Source: a virus (Duplodnaviria > Heunggongvirae > Uroviricota > Caudoviricetes). From it: DNA of 7,184 nt. The notes beneath the pieces were generated by a model that searched no databases, had not been told where the DNA came from, and worked only from the letters and a program-made list of their open reading frames with translations. Below are positions 1 to 7,184 of the stretch, in pieces; position 1 is the first letter of the stretch, and every line of letters begins with the position of its first letter. A program made the translations under genes and the position numbers. Location: positions 1-7,184 of IMG/VR virus record IMGVR_UViG_2681813320_000018; one strand, given 5' to 3'.

Positions 1-20
1 GATTCAGGGGGTGACGTGTC

Positions 21-761
21 ATGAAAAACATTGCGGCAGTTGGGGTTCTTGAACGTATTCGCAGACTTGCACCACAGGGGTCGGTTCCACCGTACCGTAC
101 GGTGGCGGAGTGGCGGGAATGGCAGCTTGCTGAAGGGCGTAAGCGCAGCGAGGAGGTTAATCGTCTGAATCATCAGACGCGGGTTGAAAAAATTATTAAC
201 CGCTCCGGTATCCAGCTGCTTCACCGGAAGTGTACGTTCGGTAACTACCGGGTGCAGAACGATGGTCAGCGCCATGCCCTGAGTCAGGCGAAATCCATTG
301 CGGCAGAGCTGGAAGGCGGCTGTACGAATTTTGTTTTCAGTGGCAGGCCTGGCACAGGAAAAAACCACCTGGCGGCGGCTATTGGCAACCACCTTCTGGC
401 GAAAGGTCGCAGTGTGATTGTGATAACAGTGGCGGATGTGATGCTGGCGTTACATGGCAGCTACGACAACAAAAACTCGGGCGAAAAATTTTTGCAGGGA
501 TTGTGTGGCGTTGACCTGCTGGTACTGGATGAAATTGGCATGCAACGGGATACGCGTAATGAGCAGGTCACGCTGAATCAGATTGTTGACCGCAGAACGG
601 CATCGTTACTCAGTGTGGGGATGCTGACAAATCTTAACCATGCAGCGATGAATACACTTCTCGGCGAGCGGGTGATGGACCGCATGTCCATGAACGGTGG
701 TCGCTGGGTGACGTTTAACTGGGAGAGTTGGCGTCCGAACGTCAGCCAGCACAGGAACTGA
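21..761 (+). CDS. DnaC-like replicative helicase loader (phage replication protein, AAA+ DnaC/IstB family)
   Basis: 246-aa ORF from the track. Walker [16 protein letters not shown] and Walker B LLVLDEIG are in the order and spacing typical of DnaC and lambdoid DnaC-like proteins. SD-like CAGGGGG at 5-11 precedes ATG 21. Co-directional with the downstream phage genes. Confidence 0.85.
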
Positions 762-790
762 GAAGTAATTTTTATCCGGAGGAAGTTTTA

Positions 791-1561
791 ATGGAAACCG
801 TATTGCATGCACTGAAAGCGATGGGTAAAGCCAATTCTGTTGAACTGGCGGCGCGGCTTGATATCAGCCGTGAAGAAGTTCTCAACGAACTGTGGGAACT
901 CAAAGAAAATGGCGTTGTTGATAAAACGGGTCACACCTGGTTTCTGGCTGGTGAAGGTGAATCCGGGGTAACCGAAGAACAGCCAGCACAGTCTGAAGTA
1001 CCGGATGTGCTGACCGGGGAGGTCGAACAAAAAGTTACCGCGGACATGATGATTGAGTTTATCTGTCAGGATGGGGCTAAAACGTGTGAGGAACTGGCGG
1101 ATAAGTTCGGTGTTAGCATTCGCAAGGTTGCTTCCACGTTGGCGGTCGTAACAGCAACGGGGCGCCTGGCACGCGTAAATCAGAACGGTAAATTTCGTTA
1201 CTGCATGCCGGGCGATAATTTACCAGCAGAGCCGAAAGCCGCGCTGGTAACGGAAAGTGATGGTAAGGCCTTTCCTCAGCCAGCAGGTGCTGCGTTACCA
1301 GGCCGGGAAGCCGCAACACAGGAAGAAATTAAAACAGAAACTGTGGCGGACATTGTGCAGTCGTTGCCATCGTTTACCGAAACGCAAGCAGATGAGCTGA
1401 TTTTTCCGTCCCTGCGCAGGGCAAACCTGGCGCTGCGCAGGGCGAAAAGTGATGTTCAGAAGTGGGAGCGAGTCTGCGCCGCGCTGCGGGAGCTGAACAA
1501 GCACCGGGATATTGTTCGACAGATTACTGATTCTTCCCGCCGTGTTGTATCGGAAAAGTGA
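791..1561 (+). CDS. hypothetical prophage protein with two winged-helix-like repeats (nin-region-like)
   Basis: Track ORF 728-1561. Start moved to ATG 791 because GGAGG at 778-782 sits 8 nt upstream and the DnaC-like gene stops at 759-761. Two internally similar modules (..[30 protein letters not shown].. and ..[31 protein letters not shown]..) resemble wHTH DNA-binding domains. No specific family recognised. Confidence 0.6.
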
Positions 1562-1576
1562 TTGCCGGAGGCGCTT

Positions 1577-1999
1577 ATGGCAAAAGTATTTACACAAGAA
1601 GAGCGGGAAAAAATTAAGGGGCAGGTTGTTGAACTCGTGCGCCAGAATGGGCGCGAGACGTTACGACAACTTGAAGCTAAGACAGGTGCGACAAGATATT
1701 TAATGAGCGTTCTCGCCAGAGAGCTGGTTGCCAGTGGCGATGTATATAACTCCGGCTACGGGCTATTTCCCTCTGAACAGGCTCGTAAGGACTGGCAAAA
1801 CGCCCGCAAAAAACTCTCAAGGGCAAAGCTGAAGAAACCATCTGCGGTTGATCCGGACCTTATCTGGTCATTACCAGATGGCGAAATACGCCGCTACGAC
1901 AGGCGTCTGAACATAATCTGTCTCGAGTGCCGGAAGAGCGAAGTTATGCAGCGCGTACTGGCGTTTTATCAGGGGAATTTTGAGGAGGTGGTGCGGTGA
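1577..1999 (+). CDS. hypothetical prophage protein (single winged-helix-like module)
   Basis: Track ORF 1562-1999. Preferred start is ATG 1577, preceded by GGAGG at 1567-1571 (5-nt spacer). Contains a module (ETLRQLEAKTGATRYLMSVLARELVASGDV) similar to the two in the upstream gene. Stop TGA at 1997-1999 overlaps the next start. Confidence 0.6.
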   Translation: MAKVFTQEEREKIKGQVVELVRQNGRETLRQLEAKTGATRYLMSVLARELVASGDVYNSGYGLFPSEQARKDWQNARKKLSRAKLKKPSAVDPDLIWSLPDGEIRRYDRRLNIICLECRKSEVMQRVLAFYQGNFEEVVR

Positions 2000-2250
2000 G
2001 TGAATCAAAATGCCAGGTTAATGGCAACAAGATAGAACCATGTGCAGCACTGGCAAAGTCCCTTGAGCATGATGCTGAATACACGATGCGAAAAGGTCTG
2101 CTGATATACAAAATCTGGAATGAGAGTTTAACTCGCGGTCCTGATTTTGTGATGTTGCGTTCCGGTGAATTTTCTAAATTACCAGTTCGGGTTTCATTTT
2201 GTCCGTTCTGTGGTGAAAGTCTGAAAACGTGGGAGAACAGAAATGAATGA
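1996..2250 (+). CDS. hypothetical small prophage protein, possible zinc-ribbon (C-x2-C near C-terminus)
   Basis: 84-aa ORF. GTG start at 1996 overlaps the upstream stop (GTGA), with GAGGAGG at 1982-1988. Cys residues at positions 6, 16, 69 and 72 (CPFCGE). Translational coupling supports it as real. Confidence 0.5.
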   Translation: MSESKCQVNGNKIEPCAALAKSLEHDAEYTMRKGLLIYKIWNESLTRGPDFVMLRSGEFSKLPVRVSFCPFCGESLKTWENRNE

Positions 2251-2554
2251 AATTAAAGAAATACCAGTAGTACGTGATGAATATGGCTGCTGGACGCATC
2301 CTGAATATGAAAAATTCTGTGACGGTCGGGAATATATTTCAACGGAAGAGTTTAACGCCTGGATGGAGGAAAATAATCTTCAATACGTCCTCTGCTTCAG
2401 AGATGAAGGATGTGCTGACCTTGATGCGTGTGATGCTGATATTTCTGCATGGGAACCGGAACGACCAGAGGGCAATGGATGGTTTATTGGTTCAATACAT
2501 GACACCGAAGATGGCCCGGTTTGTGTATGGCTGAGAAATAAGGCCGAAGCATAA
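2243..2554 (+). CDS. hypothetical acidic small prophage protein
   Basis: 103-aa ORF. ATG 2243 overlaps the previous stop (ATGAATGA at 2243-2250). Acidic, Cys-containing, no recognised motif. Last gene before the composition drops. Confidence 0.55.
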   Translation: MNEIKEIPVVRDEYGCWTHPEYEKFCDGREYISTEEFNAWMEENNLQYVLCFRDEGCADLDACDADISAWEPERPEGNGWFIGSIHDTEDGPVCVWLRNKAEA

Positions 2555-2585
2555 AGGCTATAAACCGACTAACAACTAAATACTG

Positions 2586-2620
2586 AGGATTTAAATCAGA
2601 AACGATTTTTATTAAATCCT
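2586..2620. repeat. 9-bp perfect inverted repeat AGGATTTAA / TTAAATCCT with 17-bp spacer
   Basis: Read directly: aggatttaa at 2586-2594 and ttaaatcct at 2612-2620. Lies in the intergenic gap at the left edge of the AT-rich block, about 65 bp upstream of the Q-like gene start. Confidence 0.5.
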
Positions 2621-2686
2621 TAACCGGAGGGATTCCTGCACCCTCAAATCATCAGGAGGCCGCCAGAAAGGGCGGTGGAGATAATA

Positions 2687-3208
2687 ATGGGAATAACTAA
2701 AGAACGATTGTTGGAAATAGCAAACCTTAGTGATTGGGCATTAAGTGATGAGAGAATTGTTTCTCCTCATGCTTATGAGTCAGTTACAAGTATAGAAATA
2801 ACAACAATGGCTAGAATGCTGCTTGGTTATTTCAAAATAGAAAATAAAAAACAGATGGATAGTAATGTTGATATATGTGAGATTTTAGACGATTGGGGGG
2901 CTTGGGTTGTGGCTGGTAATAGTTCTATTGATTGGCAGGAAATAGCTGATAAATATAAAAATGTTGTTCCTCATGGTAAAAAATCACGTCGTCAGTGCAG
3001 CAATGATGAAGGGCGAATTATTGACATTAGTATCCTTAGGTTAGAAAGATATAAGCAACAAGAATATGAGTTAATTGTTGCTCATTTCGTGATTGGTTTA
3101 TCTCTTCGTGCTATTGCAAAGCAACAAGGATGTTCAGATGGAACAATTCGTAAAAGATTGCAAAAAGCCTTAGGTTTTTTGACTGGATATATAGCAATTA
3201 CCAGTTAA
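2687..3208 (+). CDS. Q-like antitermination protein homolog (QuuD/Phage_antitermQ-like C-terminal region) with ~60-aa N-terminal extension
   Basis: Track ORF 2675-3208. Preferred start is ATG 2687, with GGAG at 2677-2680 and a 6-nt spacer. Motifs DDWGAW, SRRQCSNDEG and HFVIGLSLRAIAKQQGCSDGTIRKRLQKALG match what I recall of E. coli cryptic-prophage Q proteins of the QuuD type (from memory). The C-terminal segment also resembles a sigma-70 region 4 / LuxR-type HTH. AT-rich like the adjacent operon. Confidence 0.55.
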   Translation: MGITKERLLEIANLSDWALSDERIVSPHAYESVTSIEITTMARMLLGYFKIENKKQMDSNVDICEILDDWGAWVVAGNSSIDWQEIADKYKNVVPHGKKSRRQCSNDEGRIIDISILRLERYKQQEYELIVAHFVIGLSLRAIAKQQGCSDGTIRKRLQKALGFLTGYIAITS

Positions 3209-3846
3209 GAGTCAGCGGTTTTTTTACCAGTGTAATGGTATAAGGATACTCCCATGTGTCTTACATGATATGGAAGCGCTGTTGCTGGATGCTTTGTGAT
3301 ACTCTTAAAGCGGAGGGGAGAGCCTTCCGCTTCAATTTCTGCGTCCGAAACGGTCGTAGAGAAAAATTCTTTCCATTCATTGAATTTTACTGCTGATTTG
3401 TCAGACTTTATATAAATTAGAATTCCTCCATGATCGTCACGTGACGTACCCGTGCCGTAACGTTCGGTTAGCTGAATCCAGCCATTATGAATAGATTTGG
3501 GGCCTCTCCATAATTTTGCTTCACCGATCCATTCGAATTTTCCGAATTGATGTTTAACTAATAAATCAACGTGACCGCCATGTTGAGTATCATGTTCAAC
3601 ATCATAAAACCTACCTTTCAGGAAATTTTTGATCGACGCTGTTAGCTCGTCCTCTCCCCACTTAGCATCTTGATAGAAGTGTTTGTCATTTTCTAAATTC
3701 TGAATAGCGTCGTCTAAATCTTCATAGAGTTGCTTTACAAAAATATTTTTGTCTGCAGCTAATTTTCTTTGAACCATTCCCCTAAATTCAGGATCCATTC
3801 TAATTAATGATTGAAGGTCTGCAGTACAGATGTTTACATCACTCAT
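3205..3846 (-). CDS. hypothetical protein, putative PD-(D/E)xK-type nuclease (third gene of minus-strand operon)
   Basis: Track ORF 3205-3909. Preferred start is ATG at 3846-3844, with GGAGAG 5 nt upstream on the - strand, overlapping the upstream gene's stop by 8 nt (ATGAGTGA). Motif YDVEHDTQHGGHVDLLVKHQFGKFEWIGEAK gives E83, D94, E109-x-K111, consistent with a restriction-endonuclease-like core. The 3' part of the gene (about 3205-3500) is nearer 52% GC while the 5' part is about 35%. Confidence 0.55.
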   Translation of the reverse strand: MSDVNICTADLQSLIRMDPEFRGMVQRKLAADKNIFVKQLYEDLDDAIQNLENDKHFYQDAKWGEDELTASIKNFLKGRFYDVEHDTQHGGHVDLLVKHQFGKFEWIGEAKLWRGPKSIHNGWIQLTERYGTGTSRDDHGGILIYIKSDKSAVKFNEWKEFFSTTVSDAEIEAEGSPLRFKSITKHPATALPYHVRHMGVSLYHYTGKKTADS

Positions 3847-4267
3847 GCAGACTCTCCAAAAGACTCGAAGGAGTAAAGTATGGATAAAGATACTGGCTAA
3901 AATTATCAACCAATTCGCCAGTTTCTGGATGGTAAAAACTTCCTGTGTCTAAAGCATAGGAAATAAGATCATCTTCAACTGGTATTGGTTCTTCCGTTAA
4001 ATTATCAATGTATTGAAAATGCATATCCAATAGATGTGCTTTATAGCTAGATAAATAATCAGTTGCTTTTATTAGCAGGATATAGTCATCTTTCGTATCA
4101 GTTAGATAGGTTAAACCATTGATAAGGGTTTTGTATGTAAAGTGATTGATATTTTTAGCATCTTTACTAACCAGAAAAAGAAAAAGATCACGACACACAC
4201 TGCGAACAGGATCATTAAAATCCTGCTCTATTTGCGTGATAATGTCGTGATATATACTCTTTTTCAT
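3839..4267 (-). CDS. hypothetical protein (142 aa), middle gene of minus-strand operon
   Basis: ATG at 4267-4265 overlaps the upstream gene's TGA (ATGA overlap). Its stop overlaps the next start. AT-rich coding with an acidic C-terminal half. No recognised motif. Confidence 0.55.
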   Translation of the reverse strand: MKKSIYHDIITQIEQDFNDPVRSVCRDLFLFLVSKDAKNINHFTYKTLINGLTYLTDTKDDYILLIKATDYLSSYKAHLLDMHFQYIDNLTEEPIPVEDDLISYALDTGSFYHPETGELVDNFSQYLYPYFTPSSLLESLHE

Positions 4268-5355
4268 TTATGGCCTGATGATCTCGCTCTTCTTTTCTCT
4301 TCACAGGACTTAACAGAATCCAATATTTTTTCAACAATAAATATAATCGAATCAATGTTGTTACAGTTCTTCGCAATTGCTTCATGCAACCTAATTCTAG
4401 GATTATCAAGCATTGTCCTTTTTCCTGGTAATATTAACTCTACTGATAAAATATGTGAAGAACTTTGTGGTAAATCCCAAATTTTTCCCAACTTAAACTT
4501 TGTCAATATTGGGCTTGCGGACTCTCCACTATGATGGTAAACATCTTGACGCAAACACTTTTGACTTGGTTTGAGTTTTAAAGAACTTGTATTGCCATCT
4601 GAGGTGATAAAAGATACATGAGAAATTCTGCCATCTACTTTTTCGTAAAGATCTTGTATTGAACCAAATAATTCAAGAGGATTGTTTAAAATAACGCCAG
4701 CTTCTTTTTTTATAAATTTAGCCACAAGGTATTGTTGAGGCTGTGATTCACTTCTTGGAAGGATAGATAAATCAATCGTAAGAATTAATATTTTTTCTGC
4801 AGGCATTAGCATGATGGTATTAAAGCATTGCGTGACTTGGCGTGTTTTGCATTTTATTTCTCCACCATTAGCACGTAATTCCATACCCGCATCGCTAAGA
4901 TGTGTTGGGTCAAGCTCTATCACTTCAGTGTAATACGCTTTGGATAAAAAAACAGCAGTGTCAATTTGTTTATCACGAATGATATCTTGACGTAGTTCAG
5001 CAAAATGCAGCTCAGTATCAGCAACTAACAGCTCCTCTCTGGATAAAGGAGTTGGGTATTTTTCTGAGAAGGGGCTATTGTCCTTTTTCTGATTTGTGAA
5101 AATTGTTTGTAATTTTGCTACGTCTTCATCGGTGATTCTATAAATAGAAAGTAATCGATTCCCGCTAAAAATTAAACCTTTCCAGAAATCGTCGATTCTG
5201 TCTTTTAGGTCGGGATTATGCTGAACTACACTATTTACACGTTCAATAAAAAGGGGTAATCCTTGGGCCGTTACACCCAGTGATGAACCAAGAAGCTTAC
5301 GGGTGTTGCGCCAGCCAAAGCGTGAATTGATGTTTTTTACTGTTTGCTCAAGCAT
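4264..5355 (-). CDS. hypothetical protein (363 aa), first gene of minus-strand operon
   Basis: Track ORF 4264-5361 begins at a GTG. Preferred start is ATG at 5355-5353, preceded on the - strand by AAGGAAG (5-nt spacer). Long uninterrupted AT-rich ORF. No Walker A/P-loop found on manual scan and no family recognised. Confidence 0.65.
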   Translation of the reverse strand: MLEQTVKNINSRFGWRNTRKLLGSSLGVTAQGLPLFIERVNSVVQHNPDLKDRIDDFWKGLIFSGNRLLSIYRITDEDVAKLQTIFTNQKKDNSPFSEKYPTPLSREELLVADTELHFAELRQDIIRDKQIDTAVFLSKAYYTEVIELDPTHLSDAGMELRANGGEIKCKTRQVTQCFNTIMLMPAEKILILTIDLSILPRSESQPQQYLVAKFIKKEAGVILNNPLELFGSIQDLYEKVDGRISHVSFITSDGNTSSLKLKPSQKCLRQDVYHHSGESASPILTKFKLGKIWDLPQSSSHILSVELILPGKRTMLDNPRIRLHEAIAKNCNNIDSIIFIVEKILDSVKSCEEKRRARSSGHK

Positions 5356-5400
5356 TAACACTTCCTTAATTTTCCCTTAACAATTTAGGGTGCTAAACTT

Positions 5401-5440
5401 TTTTGCGCAGTTTACATAAAAAAATAGTGCGTACGCAAAA
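5401..5440. promoter_or_regulatory. operator-like dyad: 10-bp perfect palindrome TGCGTACGCA inside an imperfect 9-bp inverted repeat (TTTTGCGCA ... TACGCAAAA)
   Basis: Read directly: tgcgtacgca at 5428-5437 is self-complementary; arms at 5401-5409 and 5432-5440 match 8 of 9. Located 45-85 bp upstream of the minus-strand operon start, in the AT-rich divergent intergenic region. Function is inferred. Confidence 0.3.
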
Positions 5441-5496
5441 ACTATCTAACATGATGAGCTTTAACCGGGAAATTTGTATATGTTGTGAGCATAAAG

Positions 5497-5525
5497 TTGG
5501 CTGAGAAATCTAAAACGGGTAGAAT
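5497..5525 (+). promoter_or_regulatory. candidate sigma-70 promoter for the hok-family transcript (-35 TTGGCT, 17-bp spacer, -10 TAGAAT)
   Basis: TTGGCT at 5497-5502 and TAGAAT at 5520-5525 with a 17-bp spacer. Predicted start near 5532 gives a leader of about 170 nt before the hok ATG, in line with the long structured leaders of hok-family mRNAs. Confidence 0.3.
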
Positions 5526-5701
5526 GACTGCGGGTGCTTGAGGCTATCTGTCTCAGGCATGAACACCAAAAGGCAGATAGAGAAAAGCCCCAGTTAACAT
5601 TACGCGTCCGGCAAGACGCTTAACATTAATCTGAGGCCATATCTATGCTCTACACACGTAGGTTAGCCTCTTACGTGCCGAAAGGCAAGGAGAAGCAGGC
5701 T

Positions 5702-5857
5702 ATGAAGCAGCAAAAGGCGATGTTAATCGCCCTGATCGTCATCTGTTTAACCGTCATAGTGACGGCACTGGTAACGAGGAAAGACCTCTGCGAGGTACGA
5801 ATCCGAACCGGCCAGACGGAGGTCGCTGTCTTCACAGCTTACGAACCTGAGGAGTAA
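5702..5857 (+). CDS. hokD: Hok/Gef-family type I toxin (HokD/RelF-like, 51 aa)
   Basis: MKQQKAMLIALIVICLTVIVTALVTRKDLCEVRIRTGQTEVAVFTAYEPEE carries the Hok-family signature (hydrophobic TM helix, LVTRKDLCE, TGQTEVAVFTAYE) and matches my recollection of E. coli HokD (unverified). GGAG at 5690-5693 precedes ATG 5702. The track ORF starts at an in-frame upstream ATG 5645, judged not the toxin start. Confidence 0.85.
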   Translation: MKQQKAMLIALIVICLTVIVTALVTRKDLCEVRIRTGQTEVAVFTAYEPEE

Positions 5858-5927
5858 GAGACCTGGCGGGGGAGAAATCCCTCGCCACCTCTGATGTGTC
5901 AGGCATCCTCAACGCACCCGCACTTAA

Positions 5928-5953
5928 CCCGCTTCGGCGGGTTTTGTTTTTTT
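5928..5953 (+). terminator. rho-independent terminator (CCCGC-UUCG-GCGGG stem-loop plus U-tract)
   Basis: Perfect 5-bp GC stem at 5928-5932 and 5937-5941 with a UUCG tetraloop, followed by TTTTGTTTTTTT at 5942-5953. Lies 70 nt downstream of the hok stop. Confidence 0.7.
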
Positions 5954-6024
5954 CTGGCATTCTGGTTTACAATTCGCACGTCAGCCTGAACACCTGACAC
6001 CTGCTGCGCCAGCAGAGAAAACAG

Positions 6025-6297
6025 ATGGCGCACAAAACCAAATTTCACAATTCTGATACCGACCTTGCCATCCGGCATGGGCGGCGTTCACACGCATTTA
6101 AAACCGACTGGTACCAACACCCACCATGTACTGAAGAACAGGCCGAATGGCTAATTCATAACTACCGCAGACGCGGATACGAGATTAAGAAAGCCCTCAG
6201 CCTCGATTATCGTCACTGGATAATCTCCGTCAGGCTTCCTTACTCTGAACGCCCACCGCGTCCGTCCCGCACATTCCAGCAACGCATCTGGAGGTAA
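6025..6297 (+). CDS. hypothetical small prophage protein (rem-like by position between hok and the DUF968-like gene)
   Basis: 90-aa ORF starting at ATG 6025 with a weak purine-rich SD. Basic, Arg-rich. Assigned as rem-like only because E. coli K-12 Qin has the order hokD-rem-ydfU (from memory). Its stop at 6295-6297 abuts the next gene's GTG. Confidence 0.55.
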   Translation: MAHKTKFHNSDTDLAIRHGRRSHAFKTDWYQHPPCTEEQAEWLIHNYRRRGYEIKKALSLDYRHWIISVRLPYSERPPRPSRTFQQRIWR

Positions 6298-6298
6298 C

Positions 6299-7184
6299 GT
6301 GCGGGTATTACTTCGACCTGTTCTGGTACCGGAACTCGGGCTGGTGATCGTTAAGCCGGGCCGTGAATCCATGCCGGTATTCCACAATACCCGGGTACTG
6401 GTGGAGCCGGAACCGAAAAGCATGCGTAATCTGCCGTCCGGGGTCGTTCCTGCCGTTCGCCAGCCGCTGGCGGAGGATAAATCATTACTGCCATTTTTCA
6501 GCGACGAACGAGTGATTCGTGCTGCTGGTGGCGCTGGCGCATTGTCTGACTGGTTACTGCGCCATGTTAAATCCTGCCAGTGGCCACACGGCGATTATCA
6601 CCACAGTGAAACCGTCATTCACCGTTATGGTACCGGCGCAATGGTGTTGTGCTGGCACTGCGACAACCAGCTGCGCGACCAGACCTCCGAATCACTCGGG
6701 CAACTTGCTCACCAAAACCTGTCTGCATGGATGATTGACGTCATACGCCATGCAATGAATGGCTCGCAGGAACGGGAATTATCGCTGGCTGAATTATCCT
6801 GGTGGGCGGTCCGCAATCAGGTGGCGGACGCGCTACCGGAAGCGGTATTACGTCGTTCGCTGGGGTTGCGTGCGGAAAAAATCCGCTCAATGTACCGTGA
6901 AAGCGACATCGTACCGGGAGAGCAGACCGCCACCAGCATACTGAAGCAGCGCACAAAAAATCTTGCGCCGCTGCCTCACGCCCACCAGCAAAACCCGCCA
7001 CAGGAAGAGACGGTGGTCAGCATTGCCGTTGATCCTGAGTCTCCGGAATCTTTCATGAAACGACCTAAACGTCGCCGCTGGGTTAACGAGAAATACACAC
7101 GCTGGGTGAAGACACAGCCGTGTGCGTGTTGTGGTAAGCCAGCCGACGATCCCCATCACCTGATTGGTCATGGTCAGGGCGGAA
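6299..7184 (+). CDS. YdfU/DUF968-like prophage protein, 3'-truncated by window end
   Basis: Frame translated by hand from GTG 6299 to 7184 without a stop (295 codons), so the track omits it. GGAGG at 6290-6294 precedes GTG 6299; alternative starts are ATG 6371 or 6422. C-terminal visible part has C-A-C-C-G-K-x5-P-H-H-L-I-G-H-G, a Cys/His cluster suggesting a zinc-binding or HNH-like module. Several track ORFs here overlap it on other frames and strands. Confidence 0.6.
   Translation, partial: MRVLLRPVLVPELGLVIVKPGRESMPVFHNTRVLVEPEPKSMRNLPSGVVPAVRQPLAEDKSLLPFFSDERVIRAAGGAGALSDWLLRHVKSCQWPHGDYHHSETVIHRYGTGAMVLCWHCDNQLRDQTSESLGQLAHQNLSAWMIDVIRHAMNGSQERELSLAELSWWAVRNQVADALPEAVLRRSLGLRAEKIRSMYRESDIVPGEQTATSILKQRTKNLAPLPHAHQQNPPQEETVVSIAVDPESPESFMKRPKRRRWVNEKYTRWVKTQPCACCGKPADDPHHLIGHGQGG

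Follow-up and report, generated by a model that had tools for sequence, protein, structure and literature searches.

A long-form Q-family gene in the nin region of prophages and the putative Q-binding element beyond its antisense cargo

Q proteins are operon-specific antiterminators: there is one per phage, and it serves one promoter. A 7,184-nt stretch of tailed-phage DNA (Caudoviricetes; positions 1 to 7,184 of IMG/VR record IMGVR_UViG_2681813320_000018; hereafter the window) raises the question of what a Q-like gene does when it lies upstream of hok-rem-ydfU, genes that in the Qin prophage precede the phage's own Q. An initial annotation, made from the sequence alone, had taken this gene for a second, divergent Q that might be a dedicated regulator of the adjacent operon, a decoy or sensor, or a relic of another phage. 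Here, we describe a module that consists of the Q-family gene as its left arm, a variable block of antisense cargo genes, and a conserved 13-bp element, GCGTACGCAAAAA. The gene occurs in a short form (113-120 amino acids [aa]) and in the long form of the window (170-175 aa; Rac/Qin-like prophages of Escherichia coli and Salmonella). Our tentative answer, in which we have somewhat less than even confidence, is that in the long-form module a Q antiterminator has taken on a new role, in which it binds an operator and regulates the cargo promoter.

The Q-family gene and its prophage context

A program-made list of open reading frames (ORFs) gives a frame at 2675-3208 (+) that opens with GTG; the likely start of the gene is the ATG at 2687, which has GGAG 7 nt upstream and yields a product of 173 aa. 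Judged by its sequence, the protein is an intact member of the Q21/QuuD antiterminator family. The motifs from which the initial annotation had argued for a QuuD-type Q are all in place: WGAW at aa 70-73, R-x-Q-C as SRRQC at aa 100-104, and CSDG-x-I-x-KRLQKA as CSDGTIRKRLQKA at aa 149-161. The homology itself is borne out by Pfam PF06530 (Phage_antitermQ, the Q21/QuuD family), which aligns over profile positions 3-112 of 118 to aa 62-171 (E=9.4e-32; 109.9 bits, cut-off 26), and by PHROG 79, "anti-termination protein Q-like" (E=1.7e-34). K-12 QuuD is 36% identical over 108 aa, the family-invariant residues are kept, and a phmmer search of the PDB finds the Q21 chains 6jnx/6p18 (E=6e-4; query 67-145 on Q21 20-99), with S100 paired with Q21 T54 and A76 with Q21 S29. 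At the nucleotide level the gene is 100% identical to that of WP_000513135.1 of E. coli O127:H6 E2348/69, labeled "antiterminator Q family protein" in RefSeq; its existence and its family annotation are already public.

For Q21, a torus, or "nozzle," at the RNA exit channel and a sigma-R4-like fold have been described (bioRxiv 10.1101/651190). The WGAW...GKKSRRQC.NDEG segment of the window protein aligns with the torus-forming part of Q21, and weak C-terminal matches to sigma-70 region 4 profiles agree with the published fold. Sigma70_r4_2 matches aa 128-163 with E=1.7e-5, but its 24.8 bits fall short of the cut-off of 25.7; Sigma70_r4 (E=5.8e-4) and TIGR02937 (E=3e-8, under its cut-off) match as well. 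All matches of the region 4 type lie within aa 107-164 and under the curated cut-offs, and no profile match to sigma-factor region 2 was found. The CSDG.IRK core of the putative recognition helix in this putative helix-turn-helix (HTH) is common to long and short forms. A PADLOC scan of the protein returned a marginal mad1 match (E=0.0065) and no significant defence match.

The window ends inside the ydfU-like gene, and the status of the gene as a second Q is read from relatives. Positions 1567-7184 are 98.5% identical to an apparently complete E2348/69 prophage next to ompW, in which replication genes, DUF977, and two small ORFs are followed by the Q-like gene, three convergent genes, and hokD, and then by a rem-like ORF, DUF968 (ydfU-like), RusA, a 229-aa Q, tRNAs, and the lysis genes. 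The 229-aa protein belongs to the Q82 family (PF06323, E=3.5e-91). The canonical Q that the initial annotation had proposed to look for past the YdfU-like gene is present in this relative, and the comparison with Qin also stands, the order in K-12 Qin being hokD-rem-ydfU-ydfT(Q). Other long-form prophages carry a late-position Q of PF06323 (L056), of PF03589, the Q-lambda type (L048), or of DUF1133 (L008, L053; L and P numbers are our handles for loci and proteins). These downstream Qs uphold the claim of a second Q. Since they are separate from it and unrelated to it, the long form is a separate module; its gene is located between the replication genes and hok, not ahead of the lysis or late genes.

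We compared six long-form alleles by the Nei-Gojobori method. The ratio of nonsynonymous to synonymous divergence (dN/dS) is 0.1-0.4 in the extension, middle, and HTH segments, and the long-form gene is under purifying selection in all of them. Synonymous divergence (dS) is 0.03-0.57 in the extension, 0.27-0.94 in the middle, and 0.64 to saturation in the HTH segment. This rise from 5′ to 3′ indicates that the 5′ end is conserved prophage backbone and that the 3′ half has been swapped along with the cargo. Six independent cassette types all preserve an open frame for the protein, and the 13-bp element is perfect amid unalignable flanks.

The long form owes its length to an N-terminal extension. 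Ahead of the WGAW helix there are 19 residues in Q21 and about 10 in QuuD, and the 113-120-aa relatives begin right at the helix; the window protein has about 60 more, as the initial annotation had stated. Pfam has no match for the extension, but it is not peculiar to the window, as the word "novel" had implied: it matches PHROG 3323, a family without assigned function (E=3e-15), and it recurs nearly unchanged in E. coli and Salmonella, in about 25 clusters of proteins 170-185 aa long. Among 5,426 complete E. coli genomes, 68 have the long form and 527 a Q-domain match. An exhaustive search of 1.84 billion representative proteins with the extension alone gave six matches, which comprise its own family, fragments, and one 193-aa protein, P0124. 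With at least two architectures among these matches, the extension appears to be a mobile domain; its dN/dS is 0.11-0.42 in 14 of 15 allele pairs. AlphaFold2, run on a 60-sequence alignment, gave a mean predicted local distance difference test score (pLDDT) of 53. In the extension it predicts helices with scores below 50, and the model of the extension that the initial annotation had proposed gives nothing structural. Dimerization on a palindrome is our guess at its role.

P0124 (L060 6001-6582) is headed by a distant copy of the extension, 58% identical over 45 residues, and has no Pfam match; its phage contig, an unrelated one, also codes for a phage-type RNA polymerase, and this context offered no functional clue. 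A backbone gene was considered as the source of the extension and rejected, because mEp460 and Rac-SA53 have unrelated genes at this position. An apparently N-extended homologue in Rosenbergiella (L034) proved to be merely an upstream in-frame reading frame.

The 13-bp element and the slot before it

In the window, the element lies 2.2 kb from the Q-like gene, just past the cargo. All six long-form cassette types, which differ in cargo, contain a single copy, with strand and relative position unchanged; it lies 56-83 nt upstream of the start codon of the cargo and about 50 to about 390 nt from hok. The same core is found 0.6-2.6 kb after the short-form gene in every locus with a long enough contig, in more than 15 genera (including Buttiauxella, Enterobacter, Klebsiella, Citrobacter, Kosakonia, Erwinia, Pantoea, Providencia, and Ewingella). 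Across the loci analyzed, the 9-mer core occurs 56 times on the plus strand against about 3 expected, and the element is absent from the gene-less control loci K-12 Qin, Rac-SA53, mEp460, and phage 21.

Short-form loci place the element in a conserved block, ..CTAAC GCGTACGCA AAAACTATCG TAATCT GTTAAGAGTGGTyAC.., which has an intrinsic terminator about 40 nt on and, in annotated loci, holin genes next. Homologous blocks with variant cores lie in K-12 DLP12 (L047 7196-7280), upstream of essD and after antisense nmpC, and at L062 4830-4925 (-). In the annotated phage 21 genome, the spacer of the late promoter pR′ contains the Q-binding element (QBE), and the -10, start site, sigma-dependent pause element (SDPE), and a terminator come after it. 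Because the short-form block has a similar anatomy, we read the 13-bp element as the putative QBE of this subfamily; in the short-form module it would be the Q-binding part of pR′, ahead of the lysis genes. Covariation between recognition helix and core supports this assignment. Helix CSDGTIRK, of the long and short forms, goes with core GCGTACGC, CSDGYIGK of QuuD in DLP12 with ACGTACGT, and GKDEKLVR of the L062 Q from Salmonella with GCGGTCCGC, and the remainder of the pR′ block is unchanged across all three. These pairs suggest a simple specificity code for this Q family.

Long-form and short-form loci differ in what surrounds the element. Counted over 38 distinct contexts (32 short-form, 6 long-form), a rightward -10 (TAnnnT) at positions 20-25 is present in 32/32 short-form and 0/6 long-form contexts, the TAAGA block in 30/32 and 1/6, and a rightward terminator within 150 nt in 23/32 and 0/6. 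The rightward half of pR′, namely the -10, the initial transcribed block, and the terminator, is lost in the long-form loci. The base before the core is C in 30 of the 32 short-form contexts and T in all six long-form contexts, and the T creates a 10-bp palindrome, TGCGTACGCA (T5428 plus the element in the window). Set against a working late-gene Q, the window locus thus has a cognate element downstream and lacks both the pR′/pause/terminator context and a position before the late genes.

In the leftward direction, a sigma-70-type promoter into the cargo is predicted, its -35 lying inside the element, and the ATG at 5355 of the 363-aa cargo gene is preceded by the ribosome-binding site (RBS) AAGGAAG. 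The pattern TTGCGT-17/18-TAnnnT is present in 5 of 6 long-form and 22 of 32 short-form contexts (27/38 in all, against 9.5% in shuffles; P~1e-19), and T occupies hexamer position 6 in all 27 contexts that have TA at the right spacing.

Two further sequences resemble parts of these signals. A half-site, CGCAAAAA, occurs twice, inverted and 30 bp apart, around the predicted leftward -10 (TTTTTGCG at 5404-5411 and CGCAAAAA at 5434-5441), in the window cassette type only; the repeat may have arisen by chance or may provide a second, weak site for binding. At 3204-3212, overlapping the stop codon of the Q-like gene and followed by a run of seven T, is GTTAAGAGT, the same as the short-form initial-transcribed block. 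We discounted it: one chance match is expected at p~0.05, and the other alleles are without it.

The slot between gene and element holds genes on the opposite strand. What the initial annotation had called the adjacent operon does not run in the direction of the Q-like gene: the three neighbors converge on it, and the stop codon of the nearest overlaps its own. Among the six long-form locus types, the cargo is three unassigned genes (window and E2348/69), an NA37-family gene with a 410-490-aa gene, genes of 309 and 182 aa, DUF6731 with a 159-aa gene, or a single 332-aa gene, and hok follows the cargo in every type. Short-form genes are in the classical Q position, as in E. coli L004-L007, where RusA, KilA-N, and DUF968 precede them and holin genes follow; 1-3 antisense cargo genes follow the short-form gene in all 30 loci tabulated. 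In a scan of 51 cargo proteins drawn from long-form and short-form loci, PADLOC recognizes PD-Lambda-5_A, Kiwa KwaB, PDC-M53A/B, and a DRT-associated MBL protein, and Pfam recognizes NA37, RelA_SpoT, and D12 methylase. Given known defence homologues among the changing cargo, the slot from Q gene to element behaves as a defence hotspot across Enterobacterales prophages. The slot of Rac-SA53 (L012 7145-7910) contains IS1 a few codons into a different gene, then a 192-aa plus-strand ORF and a convergent 365-aa "beta" ORF; it is a further cargo type in the same hotspot, without Q-like gene or element.

The three-gene cassette of the window (3205-5355) has no Pfam match, and PADLOC finds no defence-model match for its proteins beyond a marginal PDC-S54 hit (E=0.0014) to the 197-aa protein. 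That protein contains a D..EAK motif (HVDLLV...GEAKLW), which suggests a PD-(D/E)xK nuclease; the 142-aa protein has no significant Pfam or PADLOC match. A homologous Salmonella cassette (L062 5001-7159) encodes proteins of 365, 140, and 211 aa between a short-form Q and holin genes. Two of its proteins were compared with their window counterparts and are 50% and 60% identical, and the 365-aa protein is recorded on at least 1,000 contigs. The window cassette is a candidate new anti-phage system.

Table 1. Coordinates of features at the window locus
Feature	Position	Strand	Evidence and remarks
Long-form Q-family gene, 173 aa	2687..3208	+	ORF and RBS; PF06530; E2348/69 identity; dN/dS 0.1-0.4 vs five other alleles
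N-terminal extension, aa 1-60, predicted helical	2687..2866	+	Lineage-specific; no counterpart in Q21, QuuD, or short forms
Q21/QuuD-family domain, aa 62-171	2870..3199	+	Pfam and PDB alignments; invariant residues; includes torus-aligned segment
Putative DNA-recognition helix of putative sigma-region-4-like HTH, CSDGTIRKRLQKA	3131..3169	+	Sub-cut-off Sigma70_r4_2/Sigma70_r4 matches
Cargo gene 3, 197 aa	3205..3798	-	PHROG 9664; 60% identical to Salmonella cassette member
Cargo gene 2, 142 aa	3839..4267	-	PHROG 11490
Cargo gene 1, 363 aa	4264..5355	-	PHROG 12777; homologues in Enterobacterales only, all "hypothetical"
Predicted leftward sigma-70-type promoter into cargo	5409..5438	-	-35 TTGCGT (5438..5433) inside element; 18-nt spacer; -10 TAAACT (5414..5409)
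GCGTACGCAAAAA, putative Q-binding element of this Q subfamily	5429..5441	+	38 distinct contexts downstream of a Q homologue
TAACAT, sole -10-like hexamer near the short-form pR′ -10 place	5447..5452	+	1 nt closer to element; no conserved initial-transcribed block or terminator after it
hok/sok locus, right edge of slot	5497..5953	+	Promoter, Rfam, CDS (coding sequence), and terminator calls

The hok/sok locus comprises a promoter, TTGGCT-17-TAGAAT (5497-5525), Rfam sok (5532-5707), the hok coding sequence (5702-5857), and an intrinsic terminator (5926-5953). Apart from sok, the Rfam scan gave a sub-threshold match to IsrK, an sRNA of Gifsy-1, at 5866-5947 (27 bits, gathering score 50; E=0.0085), which spans the 3′ end of the hok transcript and the terminator. 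The hok terminator, CACTTAACCCGCTTCGGCGGGTTTTG, resembles the tR′ of DLP12-type late promoters, GCTTAAACCCGCCGTCGAGCGGGTTTT. The IsrK/AntQ system was rejected as a match for the locus: it concerns the Gifsy-1 prophage's own late-region Q, and its arrangement is different.

The description of the gene as AT-rich was accurate. The GC content of the Q-like ORF is about 36% (0.35-0.37 across 2550-3300, against 0.50-0.57 in the flanks), and that of the gene and the three genes after it is 32-41%, against 50-57% in the flanks. The intergenic region of about 130 nt upstream of the gene (2555-2686) is 86-93% identical in phages Rac-SA53 and mEp460 despite other genes there, and a promoter search found none in it. 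It contains two hairpins, GGATTTAA..TTAAATCC and, adjoining the RBS, GCCGCC-AGAAAG-GGCGGT; a regulatory RNA or terminator was rejected here, as the fold has z=-0.89 against shuffles and is without a U-tract.

Proposed regulation of the cargo and competing explanations

How might the long form use its element? The protein would bind GCGTACGCAAAAA through its putative sigma-region-4-like HTH and thereby control the leftward cargo promoter. In the simplest version, that promoter would be repressed once early lytic transcription makes the protein: as part of the rightward early operon, the gene would be expressed when the prophage is induced, and repression is favored because the element overlaps the -35. 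In the long-form module, where the gene lies in the nin region before hok and another Q would drive the late genes, repression would remove head-on transcription over the 2.2-kb cargo on the rightward path to hok, rem, ydfU, rusA, and the late Q. The cargo promoter may instead be activated. We infer the binding of the element, the sign of regulation, and the timing of expression from sequence. Of the roles listed in the initial annotation, the dedicated regulator of an adjacent operon fits best, given the overlap of the element with the -35 of a promoter into the cargo, but the genes in question face the regulator rather than follow it.

Several points weigh against regulation of the cargo by the long form. 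Both promoters of the element are consensus-level predictions; the Salmonella L008 long-form type is without a leftward -10 at 17-18 nt, and a -10-like hexamer lies 18-19 nt from the element start in three of the six long-form types, so that a weak rightward promoter is possible. The segment corresponding to the Q21 torus and RNA polymerase contacts is equally conserved in long and short forms, although a pure DNA-binding repressor might relax it; the constraint is possibly structural. Repression would also leave already-made cargo proteins in place, and its benefit is an argument, not an observation. Finally, with a model as poor as that obtained (pLDDT 53), nothing structural stands behind a role for the extension.

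The main rival explanation, to which the conserved torus segment lends some weight, is that the long form still works as an antiterminator. It would then be an early relay Q: bound to the element, it would load onto RNA polymerase that starts from a weak rightward promoter alongside (TAACAT, 5447-5452) and would carry that polymerase past the hok terminator (5926-5953) to rem-ydfU-rusA and the late Q, restarting the early operon past the cargo. Consistent with such a role, purifying selection has preserved the segment homologous to the torus and every family-invariant residue, the element is oriented as it is in pR′ loci, positions 1-18 (GCGTACGCAAAAACTATC) equal the short-form consensus in the window and L003 types, hexamers resembling a -10 stand at the spacing noted above in three of six types, and a strong intrinsic terminator follows hok. 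Yet a precisely placed -10 and a pause block, both required for Q loading and nearly invariant in short-form contexts, are absent or shifted in all six long-form contexts, as is the terminator that most short-form contexts share; the sequence after the element is wholly different among the six types, and hok lies anywhere between about 50 and about 390 nt from the element. Moreover, the complete genome of phage Rac-SA53 includes hok and a late Q, and both the gene and the element are missing from it. We regard this relay role as unlikely. Two other sites of action were rejected on geometry. By the standard of phage 21, the hok promoter is too far to be the Q target, with about 90-100 nt separating the element from the start of hok downstream. 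If Q loaded at the leftward promoter, the -10 would lie 22-23 nt from the core; in pR′ the spacing is 20 nt, so the two geometries are not equivalent.

Alternatively, the long form might act in trans on other phages by occupying short-form Q-binding sites, either as a dominant-negative decoy, with the extension preventing productive loading, or by switching on a co-resident prophage. Its helix core and element are the same as those of the common short-form phages (the Q domain being present in 527 of the 5,426 complete E. coli genomes), the gene borders a slot that often holds defence systems, and AntQ of Gifsy-1 is a precedent for a Q-like protein whose action extends outside its own operon (PMC4825925). 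The decoy or sensor of the initial annotation is left room by this shared specificity, but nothing in the present analysis supports it directly. Action in trans leaves unexplained why an element has been retained in every long-form cassette, at a constant spacing from the start of the cargo; no promoter for expression in lysogeny was found upstream of the gene, which lies in the early lytic operon. We consider it quite improbable. Least probable is a functionless remnant, in which the 3′ part of a late-region Q was carried with cargo into the nin region and fused to an upstream reading frame: the dS gradient, with a 3′ half travelling with the cargo, the same cargo cassette in a late-region slot in Salmonella, and truncated or frameshifted copies (P0026, P0121-P0123) speak for it, but dN/dS of 0.1-0.4 in all segments over saturated synonymous divergence, an intact frame in six independent cassette types, and a perfect element in flanks past alignment argue strongly against this and against the relic of another phage suggested initially.

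The preferred reading, an operator-binding regulator of the cargo promoter, may be part of something more general, although we think this doubtful. A palindromic Q site shared by two back-to-back promoters would form a toggle, with cargo expressed in lysogeny and rightward genes in lysis, and would be a general regulatory cassette of prophage defence hotspots. The long form would then be an operator-binding switch that couples defence cargo to the state of the prophage, by way of an added N-terminal (possibly dimerization) domain and the loss of pR′.

What would follow concerns both the Q family and its cargo. Here is a second Q, maintained by selection, whose putative target has been retained without the loading promoter; if it has been re-used as a regulator, it is a clear case of an antiterminator turned into a site-specific regulator. 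At every locus examined, this Q subfamily is parted from its putative target by a swappable antisense block that includes several known anti-phage systems (PD-Lambda-5, Kiwa, PDC-M53). The result is a searchable Enterobacterales hotspot with a PF06530 gene and GCGTACGCAAAAA as its edges, which could reveal new defence systems, the window cassette among them. The module also hints at a way for prophages to make the expression of cargo depend on the lysis-lysogeny switch, and the pairs of helix and palindromic core offer a testable specificity code for this Q family.

Comparison with known systems

A limited literature search found no description of a long-form second Q in the nin region, of the conserved element, of a hotspot with a Q gene at one edge and the binding site of that Q at the other, or of the loss of pR′ in long-form loci. 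Several known systems share parts of the arrangement. The closest is QuuD (YbcQ) of DLP12, which belongs to the same Pfam family, shares WGAW, RxQC, and CSDG.I.KRLQKA with the window protein, and has the same layout: quuD, antisense nmpC, a block of element plus pR′-like promoter with terminator, and essD. The DLP12 lysis cassette has been reported to be under QuuD control (Rueggeberg et al. 2013, as cited in PMC7918800). QuuD differs in being 127 aa long without the extension and in being the only Q of its prophage, placed ahead of the lysis genes. Its core is ACGTACGT, and DLP12 has kept the pR′ block and terminator, both of which the window locus is without.

Q21 of phage 21 is homologous to aa 67-145 of the window protein through the nozzle segment, and its sigma-region-4-like DNA-binding module has a putative counterpart there. 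It differs in its 162 aa, an HT[loop]H insertion, and a longer C-terminus. The Q21 QBE is a pair of 8-bp direct repeats (ATTGAGCA, AATGAGCA) that adjoin each other within the pR′ spacer right after the gene, with SDPE and terminator behind them, whereas the window element is a palindrome plus A-tract 2.2 kb away, without either. The short forms (P0064, P0028, P0100) are nearer: they are 55-62% identical over the Q domain and have the same helix core, 13-bp element, and layout. Unlike the long form, they are without the extension, in annotated loci follow RusA/KilA-N/DUF968 and precede holin genes, and have the conserved promoter block, with its terminator in 23/32 contexts.

AntQ of Salmonella Gifsy-1 is likewise a Q-like prophage protein studied outside the classical late switch, and its expression has wide effects on transcription termination (PMC4825925). 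It differs in that antQ is directly upstream of the isrK locus and close to the Gifsy-1 lysis genes, and we read AntQ as Gifsy-1's own late Q. As for the cargo, P2-like phages and P4-like satellites have hotspots where unrelated anti-phage systems swap in a fixed slot (PMC9122126). The present locus is alike in having a fixed slot between conserved genes, here with cargo homologous to PD-Lambda-5, Kiwa KwaB, and PDC-M53. The P2/P4 hotspots belong to other elements and have other boundary genes, whereas here the boundaries are the gene of a transcription factor and its putative DNA target. A slot bounded by a regulator gene and its target appears to have regulation built in.

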